Source: Candidatus Kaiserbacteria bacterium RIFOXYD1_FULL_47_14 (GTDB taxonomy: Bacteria; Patescibacteriota; Minisyncoccia; Phycocordibacterales; Phycocordibacteraceae). From it: a DNA stretch of 41,378 nt. Made by a program: the position numbers and the translations under genes. The stretch's first letter is position 1, and each line of letters starts with the position of its first letter. Under the pieces are notes generated by a model. It was not told the DNA's origin and did no database searches. It saw only the letters and a list, made by a program, of their open reading frames with translations. The stretch covers positions 7,449-48,826 of the forward strand of contig MFMU01000009.1 in NCBI GenBank assembly GCA_001781915.1, in the 5' to 3' direction. Shown here in pieces: positions 4,718 through 41,163 of the stretch.

Positions 4718-6691
4718 ATGCCGATGGAGACAATATATGAGGGGCCGATAACGATGACTCGGAAGGGTTTCGGTTTTTTCGCTATTGAAGGCGCTTCCGA
4801 AGATCTTCTTATCCCGCCAGAATGGACGAATCACGCCATTTCGGGCGACCAAGTAAAGGTCGCTCCGGCGGGTATGTATCAAGATCCTTCGGGTAAGATG
4901 CCTCCAAGAGCTTCCGGTAAAGTGGTCGAGATCGTTTCGCGTGCGCGCGAAACATTCGTCGGCACGCTCACTGAAGAGAATGGAAAAATACTTTTGGCGC
5001 CTGATTATAAAAAGATGTATGTGCCGATTGAAATAGTAGACACGAAAGATGCCCAGCTCGGCTACAAAGTGTTAGTGCGTCTCCATGATTGGAAAGAAGG
5101 TGCGACCTATCCTTCAGGAATCATCGAAGACATCATCGGCAAAGCGGGTGTGCACGACACCGAGATGCGCGCGCTCGCACTCGGACAAGGATTCTCTTCT
5201 GACTTCCCTCCCGGAGTCATTGCTGAAGCGAAGCGGCTCGAGTCCGAGGGTACGGCGATACTCACGAAAGAAGTAGCAGCGCGAGTCGCCAAAGGCAACC
5301 CGCATACTGACTTTAGGAAAGTCAGTACCTGCACCATCGACCCCTTTGATGCGAAGGACTTCGACGATGCACTCTCGGTGCGCACGCTTCCTGATGGAAC
5401 TATCGAAGTCGGCGTCCATATTGCTGATGTATCGTTCTTCGTAAAACCAGGTGGAGCGCTCGATATCGAAGCTCGCGATAGAGCAACGAGTGTCTATCTT
5501 GTCGATCGCACAATTCCGATGCTCCCAGAGATTCTCTCGAACGATCTTTGTTCACTGAAACAAGATGAGGATCGCCTCGCGGTCTCGGCGGTCTTTACAC
5601 TCGACACTGAAGCGAATGTTCAGGATGTGTGGTTCGGCGAGACCGTCATTCACTCCAATAAACGCTTTACTTACGAAGAAGCACAAGAAGTACTCGATAA
5701 AGGAGAAGGGATACTGAGCGAAGAATTGTCTCTCTTATTAGGTCTCTCGAAGAAAATTCGCGCGCGCCGCGCAGCCAAAGGCGCTATAGAATTCGATACT
5801 GCCGAAGTAAAGGTTGAGCTAGATCCTGAAGGAAAGCCAATAGCAATCCATCTGAAAGAACGCAAAGCAACGAATTTGCTCATCGAGGATTTTATGCTTC
5901 TCGCGAATGAGGCGGTAGCGAAACATCTCTCCAAACTGACGAACAATAAAGGAACAAAATTTGCTTCGCTGTATCGTATTCACGATGTACCCGATGCTGA
6001 TCGTATTGAGAATCTCGTGAATCTCTTGCGTGTTATGGGCTACCAGTTAAAGACCTCTGGCGCCGGCACGGTAACAGGTGCTGAATTAAACAAACTCCTC
6101 GAATCGGTAAAAGGCACTCCGGAAGAATATCTGGTGAAGACCGCGGCGCTTCGTTCAATGAGCAAGGCTGTCTACGCGACACGCAATATCGGCCACTTCG
6201 GTCTCGCATTCGATTTTTATACTCACTTCACCTCACCAATTCGTCGATATCCCGATCTCATCATTCACCGACTCATAAAGTCACATGCTGGCGACGATCT
6301 TATTTCTGAAAAAGAAATGAGCGAGTTCGATGCGCTCGCAGTCCATGCTTCTGAACGCGAAGTCGCGGCTGCTGATGCTGAGCGTGATTCAATTAAGATG
6401 AAACAAGTGGAATTCCTCTCTGAGAGAATCGGTGAAGAATTCGGTGCGGTTATTTCTGGCGTTACCGAACGAGGTCTCTATGTCGAAGAACAAACCACCC
6501 ACGCCGACGGAATGATTCGCATTAAAGATATCGGTAATGATTATTTCGAATATGACGAGAAGCACTATCAGCTCCTCGGCCGCCGCACGCGCAAGTCCTA
6601 TCGCCTCGGCGACCCTATCCGCGTCAAACTCGTCGCCGCCCGTATCGCAGAAAAAGAACTAGATTTTGTGCCTGTACCAATCGCGACATAA
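4718..6691 (+). CDS. rnr: Ribonuclease R (RNB-family 3'-5' exoribonuclease with a C-terminal S1 domain)
   Basis: The RNB-domain motifs DPFDAKDFDDALSV, SVYLVDRTIPMLPE and HFGLAFDFYTHFTSPIRRYPDLIIHR are present, plus an S1-like C-terminus (GAVISGVTERGLYVE). The start at 4718 (MPMETIYEG) is used rather than 4649, which would overlap rpsP. Confidence 0.92.
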   Translation: MPMETIYEGPITMTRKGFGFFAIEGASEDLLIPPEWTNHAISGDQVKVAPAGMYQDPSGKMPPRASGKVVEIVSRARETFVGTLTEENGKILLAPDYKKMYVPIEIVDTKDAQLGYKVLVRLHDWKEGATYPSGIIEDIIGKAGVHDTEMRALALGQGFSSDFPPGVIAEAKRLESEGTAILTKEVAARVAKGNPHTDFRKVSTCTIDPFDAKDFDDALSVRTLPDGTIEVGVHIADVSFFVKPGGALDIEARDRATSVYLVDRTIPMLPEILSNDLCSLKQDEDRLAVSAVFTLDTEANVQDVWFGETVIHSNKRFTYEEAQEVLDKGEGILSEELSLLLGLSKKIRARRAAKGAIEFDTAEVKVELDPEGKPIAIHLKERKATNLLIEDFMLLANEAVAKHLSKLTNNKGTKFASLYRIHDVPDADRIENLVNLLRVMGYQLKTSGAGTVTGAELNKLLESVKGTPEEYLVKTAALRSMSKAVYATRNIGHFGLAFDFYTHFTSPIRRYPDLIIHRLIKSHAGDDLISEKEMSEFDALAVHASEREVAAADAERDSIKMKQVEFLSERIGEEFGAVISGVTERGLYVEEQTTHADGMIRIKDIGNDYFEYDEKHYQLLGRRTRKSYRLGDPIRVKLVAARIAEKELDFVPVPIAT

Positions 6692-8943: not shown

Positions 8944-8961
8944 GCAAATACAAAAATTACT

Positions 8962-9000
8962 GGAGGTGAAACACCCAAGTTGCTTGGGTGTTTCACCTCC
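8962..9000. repeat. Palindrome C1 (perfect 18-bp stem, 3-nt loop)
   Basis: GGAGGTGAAACACCCAAG ttg CTTGGGTGTTTCACCTCC. It shares the GGT(G/T)AAAC..AAGTTGCT architecture with C2 (9930-9972) and the string GGTGAAAC(A/C)CCCAAGT with C3 (37867-37889). Confidence 0.85.
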
Positions 9001-9097
9001 AAGTTCTGGGTCTCTTGCTTTTGGCTTCGCAAGGAGCATACTTTATATGTGAGGTTTCGATCTCACTGTTGCTCTTTGGTTCAACCAATAACTCAGT

Positions 9098-9929: not shown

Positions 9930-9972
9930 TGAGAGGTTAAACCCTTAAGTTGCTGAGGGGTTTAACCTCTCA
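9930..9972. repeat. Palindrome C2 (15-bp perfect outer stem)
   Basis: TGAGAGGTTAAACCC ttaagttgctgag GGGTTTAACCTCTCA. The centre AAGTTGCT is shared with C1. It lies 4 nt downstream of the rnc stop codon. Confidence 0.85.
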
Positions 9973-10677: not shown

Positions 10678-11557
10678 TATCTAAGAGTTTTTGCACCGCT
10701 GCGGTGACGATAGGGAGCATATCATCATAGAAATTGAGGTCAATGATGTCCTTCAAGCGGAACCATTTCGCATCATCGAGCCCGCCGCTTTTCTTCAAAA
10801 CGATTGGTTCGAATTCGCAGGAGGCAAGATAAAAGCAAACATGCTTGCGCACCTTCCCTTTTTCCGGATGCGAAGCGACATATTCGTTCTCGCCAATTTG
10901 ACCTTCTACTTTTACATTGAGATTCAACTCTTCTTTAATAACGCGCGCCACGCCCGCTGCGGGCGTGGCGTCTTGTTCAACATGACCTTTGGAGAGTGTC
11001 CATCGGCCGAATACATCATGCACGAGCGCGAGATAATATTGCCCATCATGTTTTGTGTAGACAATCGCGCCGCCCATTCGTTCTATCGGTAATTCTTCGC
11101 GCTTCATCTTCTTTTCTCCTTGTTCATTCTTCCCCGGTTCGCCGAGCTCTTTATAGACCGCTCCGAGAACGCCATTCACAAAACGCCCACTCGAATCGCC
11201 GCCAAATGTTTTCGCGAGTTCGATGGCTTCATTAATAGCAACTTTCGCCGGCACTTGTGCGCGATCAGCAAAAAGGAGTTCGTAGAGTCCAAGACGCAGA
11301 ATGTTTCGATCAATTGGCGCAATGCGCTCGAGCGACCACTCTGGCGCGGCCTTTTCGATAATGAGATCCACATCATTTTTCTTCGCGAGAACGCCGAGTA
11401 GGAGTCGTTCCATAAACGGATGATCAACATCATCACCTCCGAATTCTGCAGTGTTGCGCGCAAGAATTGTGAGGGTGTCCTTTTCGGATGCACCAGTAGT
11501 GTCCCATTCAAAGAGCGTCTGGAGGACAACTGAGCGCGCTAGGTGTCTATTCGCCAT
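10658..11557 (-). CDS. nusB: NusB antitermination factor fused to a C-terminal Nudix-fold domain
   Basis: The N-terminal ~145 aa are NusB-like (RSVVLQTLFEWD..., ILRLGLYELLF...VPAKVAINEAIELAKTFGG...FVNGVLG). The C-terminal ~150 aa have a Nudix fold with a degenerate box GHVEQDATPAAGVARVIKEELNL. The 3' end overlaps the rnc start by 20 nt. Confidence 0.8.
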   Translation of the reverse strand: MANRHLARSVVLQTLFEWDTTGASEKDTLTILARNTAEFGGDDVDHPFMERLLLGVLAKKNDVDLIIEKAAPEWSLERIAPIDRNILRLGLYELLFADRAQVPAKVAINEAIELAKTFGGDSSGRFVNGVLGAVYKELGEPGKNEQGEKKMKREELPIERMGGAIVYTKHDGQYYLALVHDVFGRWTLSKGHVEQDATPAAGVARVIKEELNLNVKVEGQIGENEYVASHPEKGKVRKHVCFYLASCEFEPIVLKKSGGLDDAKWFRLKDIIDLNFYDDMLPIVTAAVQKLLDNASTHA

Positions 11558-12027: not shown

Positions 12028-12057
12028 AAAACCCGCAAGATGTTATCTTGCGGGTTT
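12028..12057 (-). terminator. Rho-independent terminator of the 12043-12600 ORF
   Basis: AAACCCGCAAGA t(g)tt(a) TCTTGCGGGTTT forms a 12-bp stem. On the minus strand it is followed by TTTTACTTTTCTTTTTT. It overlaps the stop codon. Confidence 0.8.
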
Positions 12058-12600
12058 CGAGTATTCCGGGTTAAAAAGTTCAACGATTTTTGTCCCATAT
12101 TGCAGGACAACATCGTGAGTTCGACGGCTCCCATAATCCAGTATTCTCAACTTCCCATTGTGAAAGCAAAAATTACGAGGTTCTTCAAAATGATGTCCAT
12201 CATCGGAGACCTTGCCGTTGGTTAACTCGAGAAGCTGCCACCAGAAACCAGTTTCTTCCAATTGGCATGGTTCATCGAATCGTTGAATGTTCAAAAGACC
12301 AAAGAGCGAAAAGTAGGTTGGTTGGAGGAATGGATTTTTTGTCTTTCGGTAAAACCGAAATTCATTCCAGTTAGCAGATAGGCCTCTGAATAAAAACCAT
12401 CTGAAACTGCTCATATTTTTTGTCGGAAATTCGAGATATCTTTTCAGAATTTTCCATCGCCTTCCTTTCGCGCCACAATGAAAGAACATTTGCCATGAAC
12501 AGCGTGCTGCAAAAAAGAAATGCACGATAGGAAGTTTAACTACTATCCCCAATGATGGAAAAACAAACACTATTCGGTCATTACCTTTTCTGATTTGCAT
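12043..12600 (-). CDS. Hypothetical protein, possibly a minimal protein-kinase-like fold
   Basis: 185 aa. Kinase-like landmarks seen by eye are GIVVKLP (beta3 Lys?), NEFRFY (alphaC Glu?), DDGHHFEEPRNF (catalytic-loop D..N?) and ILDYG (DFG-like). The gene is visibly more AT-rich than its neighbours, with a strong SD and its own terminator. Confidence 0.55.
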   Translation of the reverse strand: MQIRKGNDRIVFVFPSLGIVVKLPIVHFFFAARCSWQMFFHCGAKGRRWKILKRYLEFPTKNMSSFRWFLFRGLSANWNEFRFYRKTKNPFLQPTYFSLFGLLNIQRFDEPCQLEETGFWWQLLELTNGKVSDDGHHFEEPRNFCFHNGKLRILDYGSRRTHDVVLQYGTKIVELFNPEYSKPAR

Positions 12601-12707: not shown

Positions 12708-13313
12708 TCAATGCAGAAACGACCGTCGATGGAGGATGCAAGGGCCGTATTTCTCGAGCATTTCGTAGTGTGCCTTGGTGCCGTAGCCCTTATGCTTCTC
12801 GAAGCCATAGAGCGGATACTGTGCAGAAAGTTCGACCATCAGTCGATCGCGGACGACTTTTGCTGCGATGGAAGCGAGTGAGATAATCGGAATAAGTTCG
12901 TCGCCGTTGATGATGGTTTCTTGTGCATATTCGACCGGCGCGCGAAGCGCGCCGTCGAGCAGAATGTGGACACCTGGTGTCAAAAGGCCTGTAGACACCG
13001 GGTGTCCACATTCTTCTGCGAGAGCGTTCACGCCGCGCGCGAGCGCGCGACGCACAGCGAATACGATGCCTTCTGTATCAATAACTTCAGCATTTTCGAG
13101 TTCAACTCTGAAACGAACATCACCCTGAGCGACCCGATCCTCGAGCAAAGCGAAAATCTCTTCCCTCTTCTTTTCAGACAGCTTTTTCGAGTCCGCAACA
13201 CCAATAAATTCTTTTGCCACATCAAAACCCTCTGGCACAGCGACCACCCCAACCGAGACCGGCCCCGCCAAAGGCCCTCGTCCCGCCTCATCGACCCCAA
13301 GAATAAATTGCAT
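12708..13313 (-). CDS. rnhB: Ribonuclease HII
   Basis: MQFILGVDEAGRGPLAGPVSVG is the RNase HII DEAGRG motif. Also present are LLDG..., SIAAKVVRD and GYGT..H. The start at 13313 is supported by a TATACT box 6 nt upstream. The gene contains an in-frame palindrome at 12961-13014. Confidence 0.9.
   Translation of the reverse strand: MQFILGVDEAGRGPLAGPVSVGVVAVPEGFDVAKEFIGVADSKKLSEKKREEIFALLEDRVAQGDVRFRVELENAEVIDTEGIVFAVRRALARGVNALAEECGHPVSTGLLTPGVHILLDGALRAPVEYAQETIINGDELIPIISLASIAAKVVRDRLMVELSAQYPLYGFEKHKGYGTKAHYEMLEKYGPCILHRRSFLH
12961..13014. repeat. 54-nt two-tier palindrome (REPIN-like doublet) in frame inside rnhB
   Basis: The outer arms form a perfect 14-bp pair, AGAATGTGGACACC (12961-12974) with GGTGTCCACATTCT (13001-13014). 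The inner arms form a 6-bp pair, GGTGTC (12976-12981) with GACACC (12994-12999). The right half reads GTAG-ACACCGGGTGT-CCACAT. The element is translated as EECGHPVSTGLLTPGVHIL, and the opposite strand gives the mirror peptide MWTPGV.RP.DT.CPHS (ORFs 12868..13128 and 12790..13011). Confidence 0.85.
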
Positions 13314-13329: not shown

Positions 13330-13347
13330 AGCACTAAATTTAGTGCT
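13330..13347. promoter_or_regulatory. Perfect 18-nt palindrome AGCACTAAATTTAGTGCT between the divergent rnhB and dnaE -10 boxes (candidate operator)
   Basis: A 9+9 nt perfect dyad centred between the two TATACT boxes (13320-13325 and 13353-13358). Confidence 0.3.
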
Positions 13348-26538: not shown

Positions 26539-26559
26539 TGTGGCGGTTCAACCGCCACA
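26539..26559. repeat. REP-A copy 1 (just 3' of the RAYT-A stop codon)
   Basis: TGTGGCGGTT c AACCGCCACA is a 10-bp dyad. It lies between the Fic stop (26520) and the RAYT-A stop (26563). Confidence 0.85.
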
Positions 26560-26562
26560 AAA

Positions 26563-27234
26563 CTATTCGAGAAGAAGTCCTCTGAAATCTTTTAATTCCT
26601 CCTTTCTTTGCAAAATCGATTCCAGAGATGAAAGCGCGAACTCTTTATACTCACCAACATTTTTAAATTGCCCTAAAATAATTTCTTTTTCGCAAATGCC
26701 CTTAATCCTCGTATCTATATATTCTCCCCAACTTGACTTGCTCTCTACTAACTTGACAGTTGTGGCGATTGAACCGCCAAGTTGATGCACATGATCATTC
26801 AAATTCACATAGGAACTGGCGTGGAGAAGATATTCGTTTGAATCAATATGTATCGCTTTGAATCTTCCCTGAAATAACGCCCCGTTTCTTTCATATTTAT
26901 TATTAAAGTACCAAGTATATCCGCCAATTCTTTTCATAAACTCACTGATACCTCCATCTACGAGCTGTTCTAAAATGAGATGGTAATGATTCGGATTCAA
27001 ACAATACGCAAGAATATTAACAAGCTTCTCCGACAGTGTGGCGGTTGAACCGCCACACTGTCTACGCGAATTCTCATAGAGACTTCCTATCGGATCAATA
27101 ACATTGAATTCAATCATACTTTTAAAGAACCTTTCTATGTCGTATCGGTTCGTAAAGATAATCCTCTTATCAACCCCTCTGTTGAATACATGATAAAATT
27201 CTTCATTCGCGAAAGGTGCTTTTCTTGTACCCAT
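26563..27234 (-). CDS. IS200/IS605-family Y1 (HUH) transposase-like protein, RAYT-like (paralogue A)
   Basis: Present are FYHVFNRG, the HUH motif NHYHLIL, GALFQGRF and SSYVNLN (Tyr helix). Two internal segments (QCGGSTATLSE and LGGSIATTVKL) are encoded by REP-A palindromes. Confidence 0.85.
   Translation of the reverse strand: MGTRKAPFANEEFYHVFNRGVDKRIIFTNRYDIERFFKSMIEFNVIDPIGSLYENSRRQCGGSTATLSEKLVNILAYCLNPNHYHLILEQLVDGGISEFMKRIGGYTWYFNNKYERNGALFQGRFKAIHIDSNEYLLHASSYVNLNDHVHQLGGSIATTVKLVESKSSWGEYIDTRIKGICEKEIILGQFKNVGEYKEFALSSLESILQRKEELKDFRGLLLE
26763..26779. repeat. REP-A copy 2 (degenerate, inside the RAYT-A ORF)
   Basis: TGGCGATT g AACCGCCA has one mismatch in the 8-bp dyad. It is translated as GGSIAT. 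Confidence 0.65.
27032..27062. repeat. REP-A copy 3 (perfect 15-bp dyad inside the RAYT-A ORF)
   Basis: GACAGTGTGGCGGTT g AACCGCCACACTGTC. It is translated as RQCGGSTATLS, about 15 codons upstream of the HUH motif. Confidence 0.9.
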
Positions 27235-27260
27235 TGTTTATATCCTAACATTCGTTCCTT

Positions 27261-27277
27261 TGGCGGTTGAACCGCCA
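27261..27277. repeat. REP-A copy 4 (5' of RAYT-A, 15 nt from the tRNA-Thr 3' end)
   Basis: TGGCGGTT g AACCGCCA is a perfect 8-bp dyad. Confidence 0.85.
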
Positions 27278-27291
27278 CAAGTGAATAAGTG

Positions 27292-27364
27292 AGCCGAGAG
27301 TCGGATTCGGACCGACGACCTGCTCATTACAAGTGAGCTGCTCTACCAGCTGAGCTATCTCGGC
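27292..27364 (-). tRNA. tRNA-Thr (anticodon UGU), no encoded CCA
   Basis: The minus strand reads GCCGAGA TA GCTC AGCTGGTA GAGC A GCTCA CTTGTAA TGAGC AGGTC GTCGG TCCGAAT CCGAC TCTCGGC T. This is a perfect 7/4/5/5 cloverleaf with anticodon loop CT-TGT-AA. The T-loop reads TCCGAAT (C at position 55) instead of TTCGAAT. Confidence 0.9.
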
Positions 27365-35073: not shown

Positions 35074-35104
35074 CTTATGTGGGATTTCCGAAACCCTACA
35101 TAGG
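35074..35104. repeat. REP-B copy 1 (upstream of RAYT-B)
   Basis: The sequence is CTTATGTGGGATTTC c GAAACCCTACATAGG. The dyad is centred on 35089 with G.T pairs and one A/C mismatch. On the minus strand it reads ATGTAGGGTTTCGGAAATCCCACAT, with a GTAG head. Confidence 0.85.
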
Positions 35105-35119: not shown

Positions 35120-35803
35120 ATGGATTTGTACCATGTACTTAATCGTGGAATTGATGGACGCAAACTATTTCTTGACTCGCAGGACTACGCGCGATTTGTC
35201 CATAATCTGTACGAATTCAACGACACTGCCCCTGCATTAGAATTTACTCGCCGAGATACGCATAATTCGAATGTGGGATTTCCGAAACCCTACATTCGGA
35301 AAAGGAAACGGTTAGTGGAAATTCATGGATGGCATCTTGCAAAGAATCATTACCACTTACTTATTTCAGAGCTGATTGAAGGCGGGTTGGCGACTTTCAT
35401 GAAAAAGCTAAATATTGGTTTTGCAAACTATTACAATGAACGATATAGGCGACAAGGACACCTTTTCCAAGGGAAAACAAAGAAAATCCTCCTTGCGCGG
35501 CATGAACATTTTCTCTACATCCTCCATTACCTTCATTTGAATTCGCTAGATTATTTCCCTGGCGCGAAGAAATGGCGCGAACGAGACAAGGGTATTATTT
35601 CGAACATTCCAAAAATACTCGAATACCTCCGAGAATATCGCTGGAGCAGCTATCTTGATTATTGTGGTACACCGAACTTTCCATCAATCCTCACCACATC
35701 GCTTTTTGGTGATGCTCTTGGCACGAACTATGTCTCTTCTCTTAAAGAATATCTGATGGACCGAACCTCTGAGGATATAGATCAGAAATTACTAGAGTAT
35801 TAG
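35120..35803 (+). CDS. IS200/IS605-family Y1 (HUH) transposase-like protein, RAYT-like (paralogue B)
   Basis: Present are LYHVLNRG, the HUH motif NHYHLLI, GHLFQGK and LHYLHLN (Tyr helix). The protein is collinear with paralogue A. The internal segment SNVGFPKPYIR is encoded by REP-B copy 2. Confidence 0.85.
   Translation: MDLYHVLNRGIDGRKLFLDSQDYARFVHNLYEFNDTAPALEFTRRDTHNSNVGFPKPYIRKRKRLVEIHGWHLAKNHYHLLISELIEGGLATFMKKLNIGFANYYNERYRRQGHLFQGKTKKILLARHEHFLYILHYLHLNSLDYFPGAKKWRERDKGIISNIPKILEYLREYRWSSYLDYCGTPNFPSILTTSLFGDALGTNYVSSLKEYLMDRTSEDIDQKLLEY
35266..35300. repeat. REP-B copy 2 (inside the RAYT-B ORF, in frame)
   Basis: The sequence is TTCGAATGTGGGATTTC c GAAACCCTACATTCGGA. The 17-position dyad is centred on 35283 with wobble pairs and one mismatch. 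The 25-nt core is identical to copy 1. Confidence 0.85.
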
Positions 35804-35810
35804 CCATATA

Positions 35811-35841
35811 ATTATGTGGGACTTCCGAAATCCTACATGAT
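35811..35841. repeat. REP-B copy 3 (between the RAYT-B stop and the fba stop)
   Basis: The sequence is ATTATGTGGGACTTC c GAAATCCTACATGAT. It has the same polarity as copies 1 and 2. Confidence 0.85.
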
Positions 35842-39067: not shown

Positions 39068-39944
39068 GGCGGATTTCTTTAAGGAATCGTTCTCCTTCTT
39101 CATCTGTAGGCACTTTCCCGTGCCAATGATAATCATTTTCAATCTCCGGCACGCCCTTGCCGGGAATCGTGTGTGCGATAATGAGCGTCGGTTTTTCATC
39201 TATCGTTTTTGCTTCATCAATTGCTTGTATAAACTCTGTGATGTTGTGCCCATCGACTTCAAGCACATGCCAATTGAATGCGCGATATTTATCAGCGAGC
39301 GGTTCGAGCGGCATTATATCCTCGGTCATACCACCTATCTGTATATTGTTGCGATCTATAATCGCAGTCAAATTTGAAAGTTTATTTTTCCCGATGAACA
39401 TCGCCGCCTCCCAGGTGCTTCCTTCTTCCTGCTCGCCATCGCTCATCACACAGTAAATGCGCCGCCCATGTTTGGATATCGGAAGTCCCACATCTGATGT
39501 GGGACTTCCGATATCCCACATTTTATCGTCCATACGAAAGGCGTACGCTATACCAGCCGCCTGCGAGAGACCTTCGCCAAGCGGACCTGATGTGGTTTCA
39601 ACACCCGGCAATACTAAACGATCAGGATGCCCCTGGAGTCGGCTGCCAAACTTCCGTAGTGAGAGACATTCTTCAATAGGGAAATAGCCAGCGTGTGCCA
39701 TCGTCGCATAGAGTACCGGACAAATATGCCCGTTTGAGAGAACGAGCCGATCGCGCTCTTCCCACTCGGGCCACTTCGGATCGTGATTGAGAATATGAAA
39801 ATAAAATGCTGCAAAGATATCCGCCATACCGAGAGAACCAGCCGTGTGTCCGCTTCCTGCGGCAACAAGCATCTGAACAATTGTCTCGCGAATTGACTTC
39901 GCTCGTTTTTCCAGTGTGAGTAATTGCTCTTCAGTGAGTGCCAT
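39060..39944 (-). CDS. tkt: Transketolase, N-terminal (thiamine-diphosphate-binding) subunit
   Basis: Present are GSGHTAGSLGMADIFAAFYF, RDRLVLSNGH, LQGHP, VMSDGEQEEGSTWEAAMF and IIDRNNIQIGG. The gene contains an in-frame REP-B doublet at 39463-39521. Confidence 0.9.
   Translation of the reverse strand: MALTEEQLLTLEKRAKSIRETIVQMLVAAGSGHTAGSLGMADIFAAFYFHILNHDPKWPEWEERDRLVLSNGHICPVLYATMAHAGYFPIEECLSLRKFGSRLQGHPDRLVLPGVETTSGPLGEGLSQAAGIAYAFRMDDKMWDIGSPTSDVGLPISKHGRRIYCVMSDGEQEEGSTWEAAMFIGKNKLSNLTAIIDRNNIQIGGMTEDIMPLEPLADKYRAFNWHVLEVDGHNITEFIQAIDEAKTIDEKPTLIIAHTIPGKGVPEIENDYHWHGKVPTDEEGERFLKEIRHD
39463..39521. repeat. REP-B doublet (REPIN-like) in frame inside the transketolase N-subunit gene
   Basis: A perfect 20-bp inverted repeat pairs GGATATCGGAAGTCCCACAT (39474-39493) with ATGTGGGACTTCCGATATCC (39497-39516). 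The overlapping unit ATGTGGGACTTCCGATATCCCACAT spans 39497-39521. The left flank CGCCCATGTTTGGA is identical to that of the trmD element. The doublet is translated as MWDIGSPTSDVGLPISKHGR. Confidence 0.9.
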
Positions 39945-40725: not shown

Positions 40726-41163
40726 CTAGAACTTTGCAAGCCGTCGCGCGTGGCGTGGAGAATCAGAAAATGGTGTTTCGAGAAATTGCTTCACAGCTTC
40801 CTTCGCTTCTTCTGGAGTGATACATTGGGCGCCGAGTGAAAGCATGTTTGCATTATTATGTTCGCGAGAGAGTTTAATAATTTCTTGCGGACCGCCATAA
40901 AAAACGGCGGCGCGTACGCCGCGTACGCGATTCGCACACATCGCTTCTCCCTCGCCTGATTTTCCGATAACAATACCGCGAGCAGCCGCATCTGATGCGG
41001 CTGCTCGCGCGCAAGGCGTTACAAAATCCGGATAATCATCTTCAGGATTGAACACATATGCTCCCATATCTTCTACCTCATATCCAAGCATGCGAATCTG
41101 TTCAATGAGTACGCTCTTAAGCGCGAATCCTGCATGATCGGAAGCAATAAATACTTTAGACAT
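40726..41163 (-). CDS. rpiB: Ribose-5-phosphate isomerase B
   Basis: Present are MSKVFIASDHAGFALK, GIVIGKSGEGEAMCANRVRGVRAA and EHNNANMLSLG. The start overlaps the gap stop by 8 nt. Confidence 0.9.
   Translation of the reverse strand: MSKVFIASDHAGFALKSVLIEQIRMLGYEVEDMGAYVFNPEDDYPDFVTPCARAAASDAAARGIVIGKSGEGEAMCANRVRGVRAAVFYGGPQEIIKLSREHNNANMLSLGAQCITPEEAKEAVKQFLETPFSDSPRHARRLAKF

Follow-up and report, generated by a model that had tools for sequence, protein, structure and literature searches.

Among the closest described systems to the palindrome analysed here are the REPIN-RAYT system, which was reportedly worked out by Bertels and Rainey in 2011, Nunvar et al. in 2010 and Ton-Hoang et al. 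in 2012, and the Rickettsia palindromic elements (RPE), which Ogata et al. are said to have introduced in Science in 2000. By definition, a REPIN is an extragenic unit whose replication proceeds as a doublet. With a length of about 100-150 bp, the classic RPE-1 is restricted to Rickettsia and is without a known dedicated transposase. Prokaryotic REPs in general were sorted into GTAG- and CGTC-tagged superfamilies (Di Nocera, De Gregorio & Rocco 2013, BMC Genomics 14:522, PMC3733652). Among the REPs found wholly inside open reading frames more than half are dimers or grouped repeats encoding 20-30 residues, many of them in genes of replication and repair, and different REPs occupy about the same recB site in two Xanthomonas species (PMC3733652). 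The same paper equates the Rickettsia elements RPE-4 and RPE-6 with intragenic REPs and summarises the action of IS200/IS605 and E. coli TnpA-REP on hairpins (PMC3733652).

The DNA analysed here is a stretch of 41,378 nt from Candidatus Kaiserbacteria bacterium RIFOXYD1_FULL_47_14 (contig MFMU01000009.1), called the window in the following; positions are those of the window. Its RNase HII gene contains a two-tier palindrome, which is composed as follows:

12708 to 13313, minus strand: RNase HII gene, 201 aa from the ATG at 13313 (mechanical ORF start GTG at 13334), Pfam PF01351 with E 2e-34
12958 to 13017, no strand assigned: two-tier palindrome, a REPIN-like REP-C doublet, from inverted-repeat search, shuffles and folding
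12965 to 12985, minus strand: left REP-C unit, inverted, reading TGTGGACACCTGGTGTCAAAA on the plus strand, with 3 mismatches when compared to the right unit on the other strand
12989 to 13011, plus strand: right REP-C unit CTGTAGACACCGGGTGTCCACAT, with exact 21-mer copies elsewhere in metagenomes

The outer arms AGAATGTGGACACC (12961-12974) and GGTGTCCACATTCT (13001-13014) form a perfect inverted pair of 14 nt with a spacing of 26 nt, and the inner arms are GGTGTC (12976-81) and GACACC (12994-99), as the preliminary description of this DNA had stated. The order at the site is AGAATGTGGACACC, T, GGTGTC, AAAAGGCCTGTA, GACACC, G, GGTGTCCACATTCT. With a repeat finder the dyad grows to 30+30 nt (12958-13017) with 87% complementarity and without a spacer, which makes it the longest inverted repeat of the window. 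Shuffling the window 200 times with the dinucleotides preserved never produced a perfect inverted repeat of at least 14 nt with a spacer of at most 40 nt, the longest being 13 nt, whereas the real window contains six. The palindrome is real and far above chance expectation.

Folding of the single-stranded DNA and the RNA, which had been proposed as a check, yielded a strong hairpin. The two DNA strands of the segment reach -24.0 and -22.1 kcal/mol (z -7.6 and -7.1) and the RNA in mRNA sense reaches -38.5 kcal/mol (z -7.6), and 0 of 200 shuffles were equally stable. At minimum energy the whole segment folds back on itself as a single, long hairpin, so that it has the build of a REPIN, i.e., two inverted REPs with a short spacer that fold into one long hairpin. 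An Rfam search of the window returned tRNA-Thr only, and the hairpin is covered by no known RNA family. On the minus strand the palindrome is translated as EECGHPVSTGLLTPGVHILLDG and the whole of 12958 to 13017 as (E)ECGHPVSTGLLTPGVHIL; the RNase HII segment across the hairpin reads ...EECGHPVSTGLLTPGVHIL.... The 54 nt from the first to the last base of the outer arms had been described as exactly 18 codons in frame. They are indeed a multiple of three and lie in the frame of the gene, but start on the third base of a codon and are not codon-aligned. Mirror peptides on both strands are present as well, but these are an automatic consequence of any palindrome.

The right half of the palindrome, TGTAGACACCGGGTGTCCACA, was named REP-C. 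Its unit of 21-23 nt starts with CTGTAG and consists of a GTAG head, a core stem of 5 bp (ACACC/GGTGT) that encloses a single base, and a CCACAT tail; the feet TGTAG and CCACA pair with one A-C mismatch, which results in a short stem-loop. This layout and its likeness to a second repeat, REP-B (ATGTAGGGTTTCGGAAATCCCACAT), had been noticed before and both were confirmed. REP-B has three copies in the window (35077, 35271 and 35814), and the GTAG tag is found in it as in the REP-C copies that flank a transposase gene of a related contig (L097, see below). The left half was rightly taken for an inverted and slightly diverged copy, and the two units form a head-to-head GTAG-REP doublet. On the minus strand the head of the left unit reads TTTTG instead of TGTAG and is therefore a degenerate tag. 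REP-A (see below), REP-B and REP-C have the frame TGT(A/G)G - stem - loop - stem - C(C/T)ACA in common, with stems of 5-7 bp and a loop of 1 nt, and the window contains three strict matches to this frame versus 0.000 expected from 500 shuffles. Five of the six reading frames of REP-C are open. Besides the RNase HII doublet, the 41-kb window contains neither a further REP-C copy nor a REP-C-flanked transposase. The REP elements outside the transposase loci of the window, in the RNase HII and the transketolase gene, are both intragenic.

The host gene is intact. All four catalytic acidic residues of RNase HII (D8, E9, D120 and D138) are kept and form invariant columns of the alignment, and the palindrome lies in a surface loop. 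In the AlphaFold2 model (mean pLDDT 79) residues 102-114, which hold the insert, form a coil whose pLDDT drops below 50 at 106-111. The coil is bordered by a helix (83-101) and a strand (115-120) that runs to the catalytic Asp of the LLDG motif. The insert is accordingly modelled as a floppy or disordered loop. The closest RNase HII proteins stem from Patescibacteria (Parcubacteria, Paceibacterota, Minisyncoccota). Among the best 120 RNase HII cluster representatives, with 68-100% identity, 69 carry the short loop ..NALAPD(A/S)ALVH(I/V)QLDG (empty), and the other 51 have a longer segment at the identical place, which adds 2 to 37 residues, most commonly 9 or 10, and is encoded by a palindrome (filled). 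E. coli RnhB (PDB 7UWE) and less closely related RNase HII proteins, both of other Patescibacteria and of further phyla, also have the short form; the outgroups were relatives of at most 53% identity from a genome-contig search with the RNase HII alignment, the matches of which were dominated by the universal GRGPLAGPV motif. Therefore, the empty form is ancestral and about 10 residues are extra and derived. The preliminary description had suggested to look for about 10-15 extra residues in an orthologue alignment, and had made its reading depend on the absence of the peptide from distant RNase HII proteins and on the existence of related copies; distant RNase HII proteins are without the peptide and such copies were found elsewhere.

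At the DNA level the filled allele of the window covers 19 codons (GAA GAA TGT GGA CAC CCG GTG TCT ACA GGC CTT TTG ACA CCA GGT GTC CAC ATT CTG) and the empty allele nine codons (CCA GAT TCG GCA CTG GTG CAC ATA CAG), i.e., 57 nt versus 27 nt. This is a net gain of 30 nt in which part of the host codons is replaced. As the preceding PD(A/S)AL codons are gone, the filled alleles do not have the form expected of a plain insertion between GTG and CAC. The element is not a clean insertion and stands in place of 27 nt of the empty allele. No target-site signature can be defined from the DNA of the filled and empty alleles, and the idea that the empty-allele sequence GTGCACAT mimics the REP tail GTCCACAT and served as insertion target was unsupported. 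The arms of the palindrome reach into the flanking host codons.

A search for related copies, which had likewise been proposed, was done as a scan of metagenome contigs for the exact 21-mer TGTRGACACCNGGTGTCCACA. It is present in 23 metagenome stretches, six of them from one sample (Ga0172379), in varied and unrelated contexts including the flanks of a transposase gene. The other contexts are:

Intergenic, running into terminator-like hairpins: L091, L102, L101, L088 and L100
Orthologous RNase HII site: L089
In frame in ArgRS, as a doublet reading ..TEGHPVSTGTVDTGCLQVG..: L081, L096 and L092
In frame in uracil-DNA glycosylase (UDG), reading ..CGHPVST..: L094 and L098
In frame in MiaA, reading ..PVDTRCPQ..: L095

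The DNA of REP-C is translated in three frames, as CGHPVST, as VDTGC or VDTRC and as WTPGV(Y/H). Since one DNA is read in three frames, the conservation is at the level of the nucleotides and not of the peptide. Compared to distant solved homologues the UDG copy adds two residues and the ArgRS doublet none, and the REP fills an existing loop, which a simple cut-and-paste model does not predict. The RNase HII site, in the window and in the orthologue L089, is the only one at which the exact doublet was found; most other REP-C copies are singlets, and the units of the ArgRS doublet are arranged inversely to those of the RNase HII doublet.

Transposase genes flanked by REPs are present both in the window and in the related contigs:

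26563 to 27234, minus strand: RAYT-like Y1/HUH transposase gene A, flanked by REP-A (TGTGGCGGTT[C/G]AACCGCCACA), with Pfam match
35120 to 35803, plus strand: RAYT-like gene B, flanked by REP-B (TGTAGGGTTTCGGAAATCCCACA; ATGTAGGGTTTCGGAAATCCCACAT on the minus strand)
5935 to 6639 of L097, strand not given: REP-C-flanked Y1 gene, ORF of 234 aa (also in L099), Pfam Y1_Tnp with E 2e-8

REP-A is located at 26539-26559 and, slightly degenerate, at 27259-27279 around gene A, with a third copy in frame inside the gene (27037-27057). REP-B is found at 35077-35101 and 35814-35838 around gene B and in frame within it at 35271-35295. In L097, REP-C borders the transposase gene at 5888-5908 and 6640-6660, and one more copy lies in frame within the gene (6116-6136). 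The cognate transposase of REP-C, in the sense of a REPtron, is therefore found in L097, a related metagenome contig, rather than in the window. A fourth member of the family (L115) is flanked by ACCGGAGAGACACCNGGTGTCTCTCCGGT and has no internal REP copy in its gene. This rules out that an internal REP is universal in these genes; it is present in three of the four examined, in one and the same loop, which in genes A and B precedes the HUH motif by about 20 residues.

The transposases are divergent proteins of about 225-235 aa. N90, H91 and H93 (NHxH) together with Y151 are invariant in 27 members of the family, which places them in the Y1 superfamily. For Pfam PF01797 A (26.9) and C (34.8) score above the gathering threshold and B below (21 vs 23). 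The best and only NCBIfam match for the three transposases is NF047646, 'REP-associated tyrosine transposase', with 24.0, 19.5 and 30.8 bits (30.8 for L097) versus an equivalog cut-off of 80. Because these scores are below the cut-off for RAYTs, the proteins are named RAYT-like here. When a profile of the family was searched against the PDB, its HUH region matched ISDra2 TnpA marginally (E 0.08), and E. coli TnpA-REP was not reached.

The analysis shows that the RNase HII segment is derived, that it is a member of a dispersed family and that the same REP flanks Y1 transposase genes. We consider it highly probable that the palindrome is an inverted pair of short GTAG-tagged REP units, a REPIN-like doublet, which lies in frame in a loop of RNase HII, is derived, dispersed and linked to Y1 transposases, and turns over as a passenger. 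It is best seen as selfish or neutral DNA rather than as an adaptation of RNase HII. By analogy with IS200/IS605 and E. coli TnpA-REP, the Y1 transposase would bind the REP hairpin on single-stranded DNA, cut at the feet of the hairpin and then move or copy it. In the gene-dense genomes of Patescibacteria selection would spare intragenic copies only if these are in frame, free of stop codons and located in tolerant loops, and the surviving copies would be translated as a disordered loop.

The preliminary description had called RNase HII the third housekeeping gene hit by a related element subfamily. Among the other coding-region palindromes of the window, that of the transketolase gene is a REP doublet and a true insertion:

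39468 to 39525, no strand assigned: second intragenic REP doublet, REP-B-like, in the N-terminal transketolase gene, with perfect arms of 21+21 nt at 39474-39516

This doublet encodes an insertion of 18 residues, KMWDIGSPTSDVGLPISK. The palindrome in the RpiB gene (40977-41009), however, is not an insertion, as the protein aligns without gaps to a solved RpiB. That RNase HII was 'hit', i.e., that the element transposed into the gene, is what we infer from the analysis. Other GC-rich coding palindromes that, like the one in RpiB, are not insertions were seen at NusB-NUDIX (10946) and in its orthologues and at a second site in RNase HII orthologues.

At the RNase HII site the coding-strand DNA of the orthologues carries different palindromes between near-identical flanks:

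Window and L089: type C, ..TGTGG ACACC.GGTGT .. ACACC.GGTGT CCACAT..
L106 (P0005) and L112 (P0004): type D, ..TGTGG AAGTC.GACTT .. AAGTC.GACTT CCACAT..
L108 (P0009): type E, GAAATTGGACATCCGATGTCC TCG GGACATCGGATGTCCAATTTC, perfect arms of 21+21
L114 (P0022): type E as single unit, GTTGGACATCCGATGTCCAAC, +4 residues
L110 (P0058): type D as triple, +16 residues
L109 (P0057): degenerate, one hairpin retained and the other decayed

Filled sites contain one, two or three units with at least four different hairpin cores. Compared to the window, L089 has a gene identity of 69% and an element identity of 89%, L106 of 86% and 60% and L112 of 82% and 70%, respectively. As different cores are found at one site and the identity of the element does not track that of the gene, the element turns over. 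A rough NJ tree of 120 short proteins shows filled forms scattered among empty ones; it is weakly resolved, does not allow gains and losses to be counted and was used for this interspersion alone. The D-type core GGAAGTCNGACTTCC recurs at other positions of these loci (L112:738, L106:5483 and, inside DnaE, L110:425), so that in three D-core loci the core at the site equals the core of REP copies nearby. This match points to a replacement or conversion by the REP family of each genome, or to repeated insertion at one permissive site.

The comparison of L112 and the window also bears on a more specific mechanism. The two have common flanks and a similar spacer (GGC CTT TTG in the window, GGG CTG TTG in L112), both cores differ, and the changes are matched on both arms. 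Because flanks and spacer are kept while both cores change in a matched fashion, this is compatible with Y1 transposases that, in resident REPs, swap the hairpin cores enclosed by the conserved feet (TGTGG ... CCACA). Compatible with such an exchange are also the match between the core at the site and REPs elsewhere in the locus and the frequent substitution of REPs for host codons instead of an addition; the internal REPs in the transposase genes would fit both the exchange and an additional role of the embedded REP in self-recognition or autoregulation. If true, a fixed intragenic site would be overwritten repeatedly by the active REP family of the genome, a cassette-like and site-preserving rewriting of protein loops. 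We rate this combination as conceivable but unlikely.

Apart from the degenerate one, all filled orthologues form long hairpins (-37 to -52 kcal/mol) despite their differing cores, and the outer arms covary (GCAGAAT/ATTCTGC in the window, GCAAAAT/ATTTTGT in L089). As the element of L089 is in addition more conserved than its host gene, there is room for a selected nucleic-acid function, and the insert peptide of P0002 is identical to that of the window in a protein of 88% overall identity. The hairpin might be selected as a cis-acting structure, either as a hairpin in the mRNA that adjusts how the RNase HII transcript is translated or degraded or as a DNA cruciform or RAYT-binding site. However, it is dispensable in the 69 empty orthologues, the same 21-mer is located at unrelated loci and within other genes, and one lineage (L109) tolerates its decay. 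The structure-preserving differences are explained equally well by replacement with a fresh REP, and we regard selection for the structure as quite unlikely.

It is very improbable that the extra loop is an adaptation of the RNase HII protein, for example a metal- or partner-binding Cys/His loop (CGH...H), in which the palindromy would be incidental. C, H and H do recur in the C-type inserts, and EC-G and HILLDG flank most filled forms, but these flanking residues are the translated REP feet TGTGG and CCACAT. In addition, the peptides of different orthologues are wholly different (CGHPVSTGLLTPGVH, CGSQTSKCAGKSDFH, IGHPMSSGHRMSNFN and YRSLTSVKLGKSDFH) while the DNA is still palindromic, in other proteins a different frame of the same DNA is translated, and the insert is modelled as a low-confidence coil. 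An origin in place by template-switch 'quasi-palindrome correction' or replication slippage, without a mobile element and in genomes prone to palindromic coding sequence, would agree with the non-inserted palindromes (RpiB, NusB-NUDIX, second RNase HII site) and with the arms extending into host codons, but is hardly credible, as it explains neither why copies within unrelated genes, between genes and around a transposase gene match in 21 of 21 nt nor why three REP types in one window have the same GTAG/CCACA feet.

The reading as a REPIN-like passenger extends the REP/RAYT-type mobile hairpins to the Patescibacteria (candidate phyla radiation). The hairpins end up inside essential genes of gene-dense genomes (RNase HII, transketolase, ArgRS, UDG, MiaA and DnaE), and short protein insertions in Patescibacteria that have had no explanation may originate from REPs. 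Gene calling and homology-based alignment must allow for palindromic in-frame segments. With its empty, single, double and triple alleles and several cores the RNase HII site provides a natural series for gain, replacement and loss of REPs, whereas the knowledge of RNase HII itself is unchanged.

Among the known systems, the REPIN-RAYT system resembles the present one in the inverted REP pair that forms one long hairpin, in single-copy Y1/HUH genes with cognate flanking REPs and in a transposase of its own for each REP family. In contrast to REPINs, the same doublet does not recur at many loci here: it is limited to the RNase HII site and the arrangement in ArgRS is the opposite one, so that replication as a doublet is unsupported. 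With RPEs the elements have in common that palindromic repeats lie in frame in housekeeping genes of a reduced genome, in surface loops where they are tolerated. Unlike RPEs, the units are only 21-25 nt long, linked to Y1 transposases, hosted by Patescibacteria and without sequence similarity to RPEs; the likeness is one of analogy and not of membership. Like IS200/IS605 TnpA (ISDra2 TnpA, PDB 2XM3) the transposases have a HUH motif and a Tyr, and the ends of IS200/IS605 are hairpins recognised on single-stranded DNA. In difference to IS200/IS605, the mobile unit here would be a bare hairpin and not a gene-carrying IS, and the similarity to the solved TnpA is marginal.

There is close agreement with the GTAG-tagged REPs (PMC3733652): a short stem-loop with GTAG at one end, pairs in opposite orientation that fold into larger hairpins, several families per genome and REP-flanked transposase genes. 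As described for intragenic REPs (PMC3733652), the copies in ORFs are mostly dimers and their hosts include genes of replication and repair, here RNase HII, UDG and DnaE. Because the elements match the description by Di Nocera et al. (PMC3733652) feature by feature, they are no new kind of element. GTAG-type REPs usually have an extragenic location, which the RNase HII copy, in frame inside a gene, does not share; intragenic members are nevertheless accepted (PMC3733652). Both REPs of the window outside the transposase loci are intragenic. Further differences are the host phylum (Patescibacteria/Parcubacteria), which was outside the survey, the very short stem of 5-7 bp with a 1-nt loop, the conserved CCACA(T) tail, the near-complementary TGTAG/CCACA and the divergent transposases below the RAYT cut-off. 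A literature search for REP, REPIN or RAYT in Patescibacteria found no paper linking them. What appears new compared to the known systems is the host group, the very short-stemmed REP, the feet of which (TGTAG/CCACA) are near-complementary, the large set of alleles at one site and the in-frame REPs inside transposase genes.

The REP types, short GTAG-type hairpin repeats, are found not only beside the RAYT-like (Y1/HUH) transposase genes but also within some of them. Three different genes of this kind, A and B of the window and RAYT-C of the related metagenome locus L097, each carry a copy of their own flanking REP type in frame:

Window 27037-27057: REP copy in RAYT-like gene A (ORF 26563-27234, minus strand)
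Window 35271-35295: REP copy in RAYT-like gene B (ORF 35120-35803, plus strand)
L097 6116-6136: REP copy in RAYT-C

All three copies occupy the same loop, with the HUH motif following about 20 residues further on; the pairwise identity of the three transposases is 23-26%. A fourth relative, L115, has no internal copy. The REP-coded GLWTPGVY of RAYT-C is restricted to its closest relatives (at least 70% identity), and the other relatives have G--NPxxFQWP in its place. Upstream of gene A, a REP-A copy is located 12 nt downstream of a tRNA-Thr(TGT) gene (window 27291-27364, minus strand; region 27259-27364), and therefore the entire unit of transposase A and REP directly adjoins the tRNA gene.

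Palindromes were also found in other coding sequences:

L113 259-963: RNase HII orthologue P0080, with a different two-tier palindrome
L112 10162, L106 10169, L089 13740: second coding palindrome of RNase HII orthologues, 14-16 nt (..GCGCGTCGCC.GG.GGCGACGCGC..)
Window 10946-10970, L112 11718, L106 12247: 12+12-nt GC-rich palindrome (CGCCACGCCCGC.GCGGGCGTGGCG) inside a NusB-NUDIX fusion gene
L110 425-476: REP-D doublet (GCCCGACTTGGAAGTCGGACTTCCAAGT GGAAGTCCGACTTCCAAGTCGGGC, 25-nt arms) inside a gene called as DnaE

The palindrome of P0080 has the outer arms GCCCCGTTAGAGAC..GTCTCTAACGGGGC and the inner pair AGTCGTC/GACGACT. It is preceded by an intact PDAALVKIQLDG of the empty type, without insert, and followed by a second, filled-type SVHILLDG. 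From this arrangement the target region appears to have been duplicated, with another element between the two copies. In the window RNase HII the site of the 14-16-nt palindrome is not palindromic. The NusB-NUDIX palindrome is kept in several genomes, and DnaE of L110, a related genome, is one more replication gene with an intragenic REP.

Beside RNase HII, a 185-aa ORF (window 12043-12600, minus strand) without any Pfam match separates it from the neighbouring genes, and in orthologous loci the stretch from RNase HII to ribosomal protein L32 likewise holds small, variable, unannotated ORFs.

Perfect or near-perfect hairpins of 19-20 nt (TGGAGGTGAAACACCCAAG.. and TGAGAGGTTAAACCC..) are intergenic:

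Window 8961-9001: first hairpin
Window 9930-9972: second hairpin
L112 12717: 19-20-nt hairpin

The second is kept in L112, in the gap that separates RNase III from the following gene. Most likely these hairpins are terminators that work in both directions, or else members of one more repeat family.

Two perfect palindromes share the centre CATCTGATG:

Window 40977-41009: 16+16 nt (CGCGAGCAGCCGCATC T GATGCGGCTGCTCGCG) in the RpiB gene
Window 39468-39525: 21+21 nt, within the N-terminal transketolase gene (a REP-B-like doublet)

The RpiB palindrome lacks the TGTGG/CCACA feet, and comparison with a solved RpiB (2VVO) ruled it out as an insertion. The transketolase palindrome, compared with the solved split transketolase 6YAK, codes for an 18-residue insertion, KMWDIGSPTSDVGLPISK.
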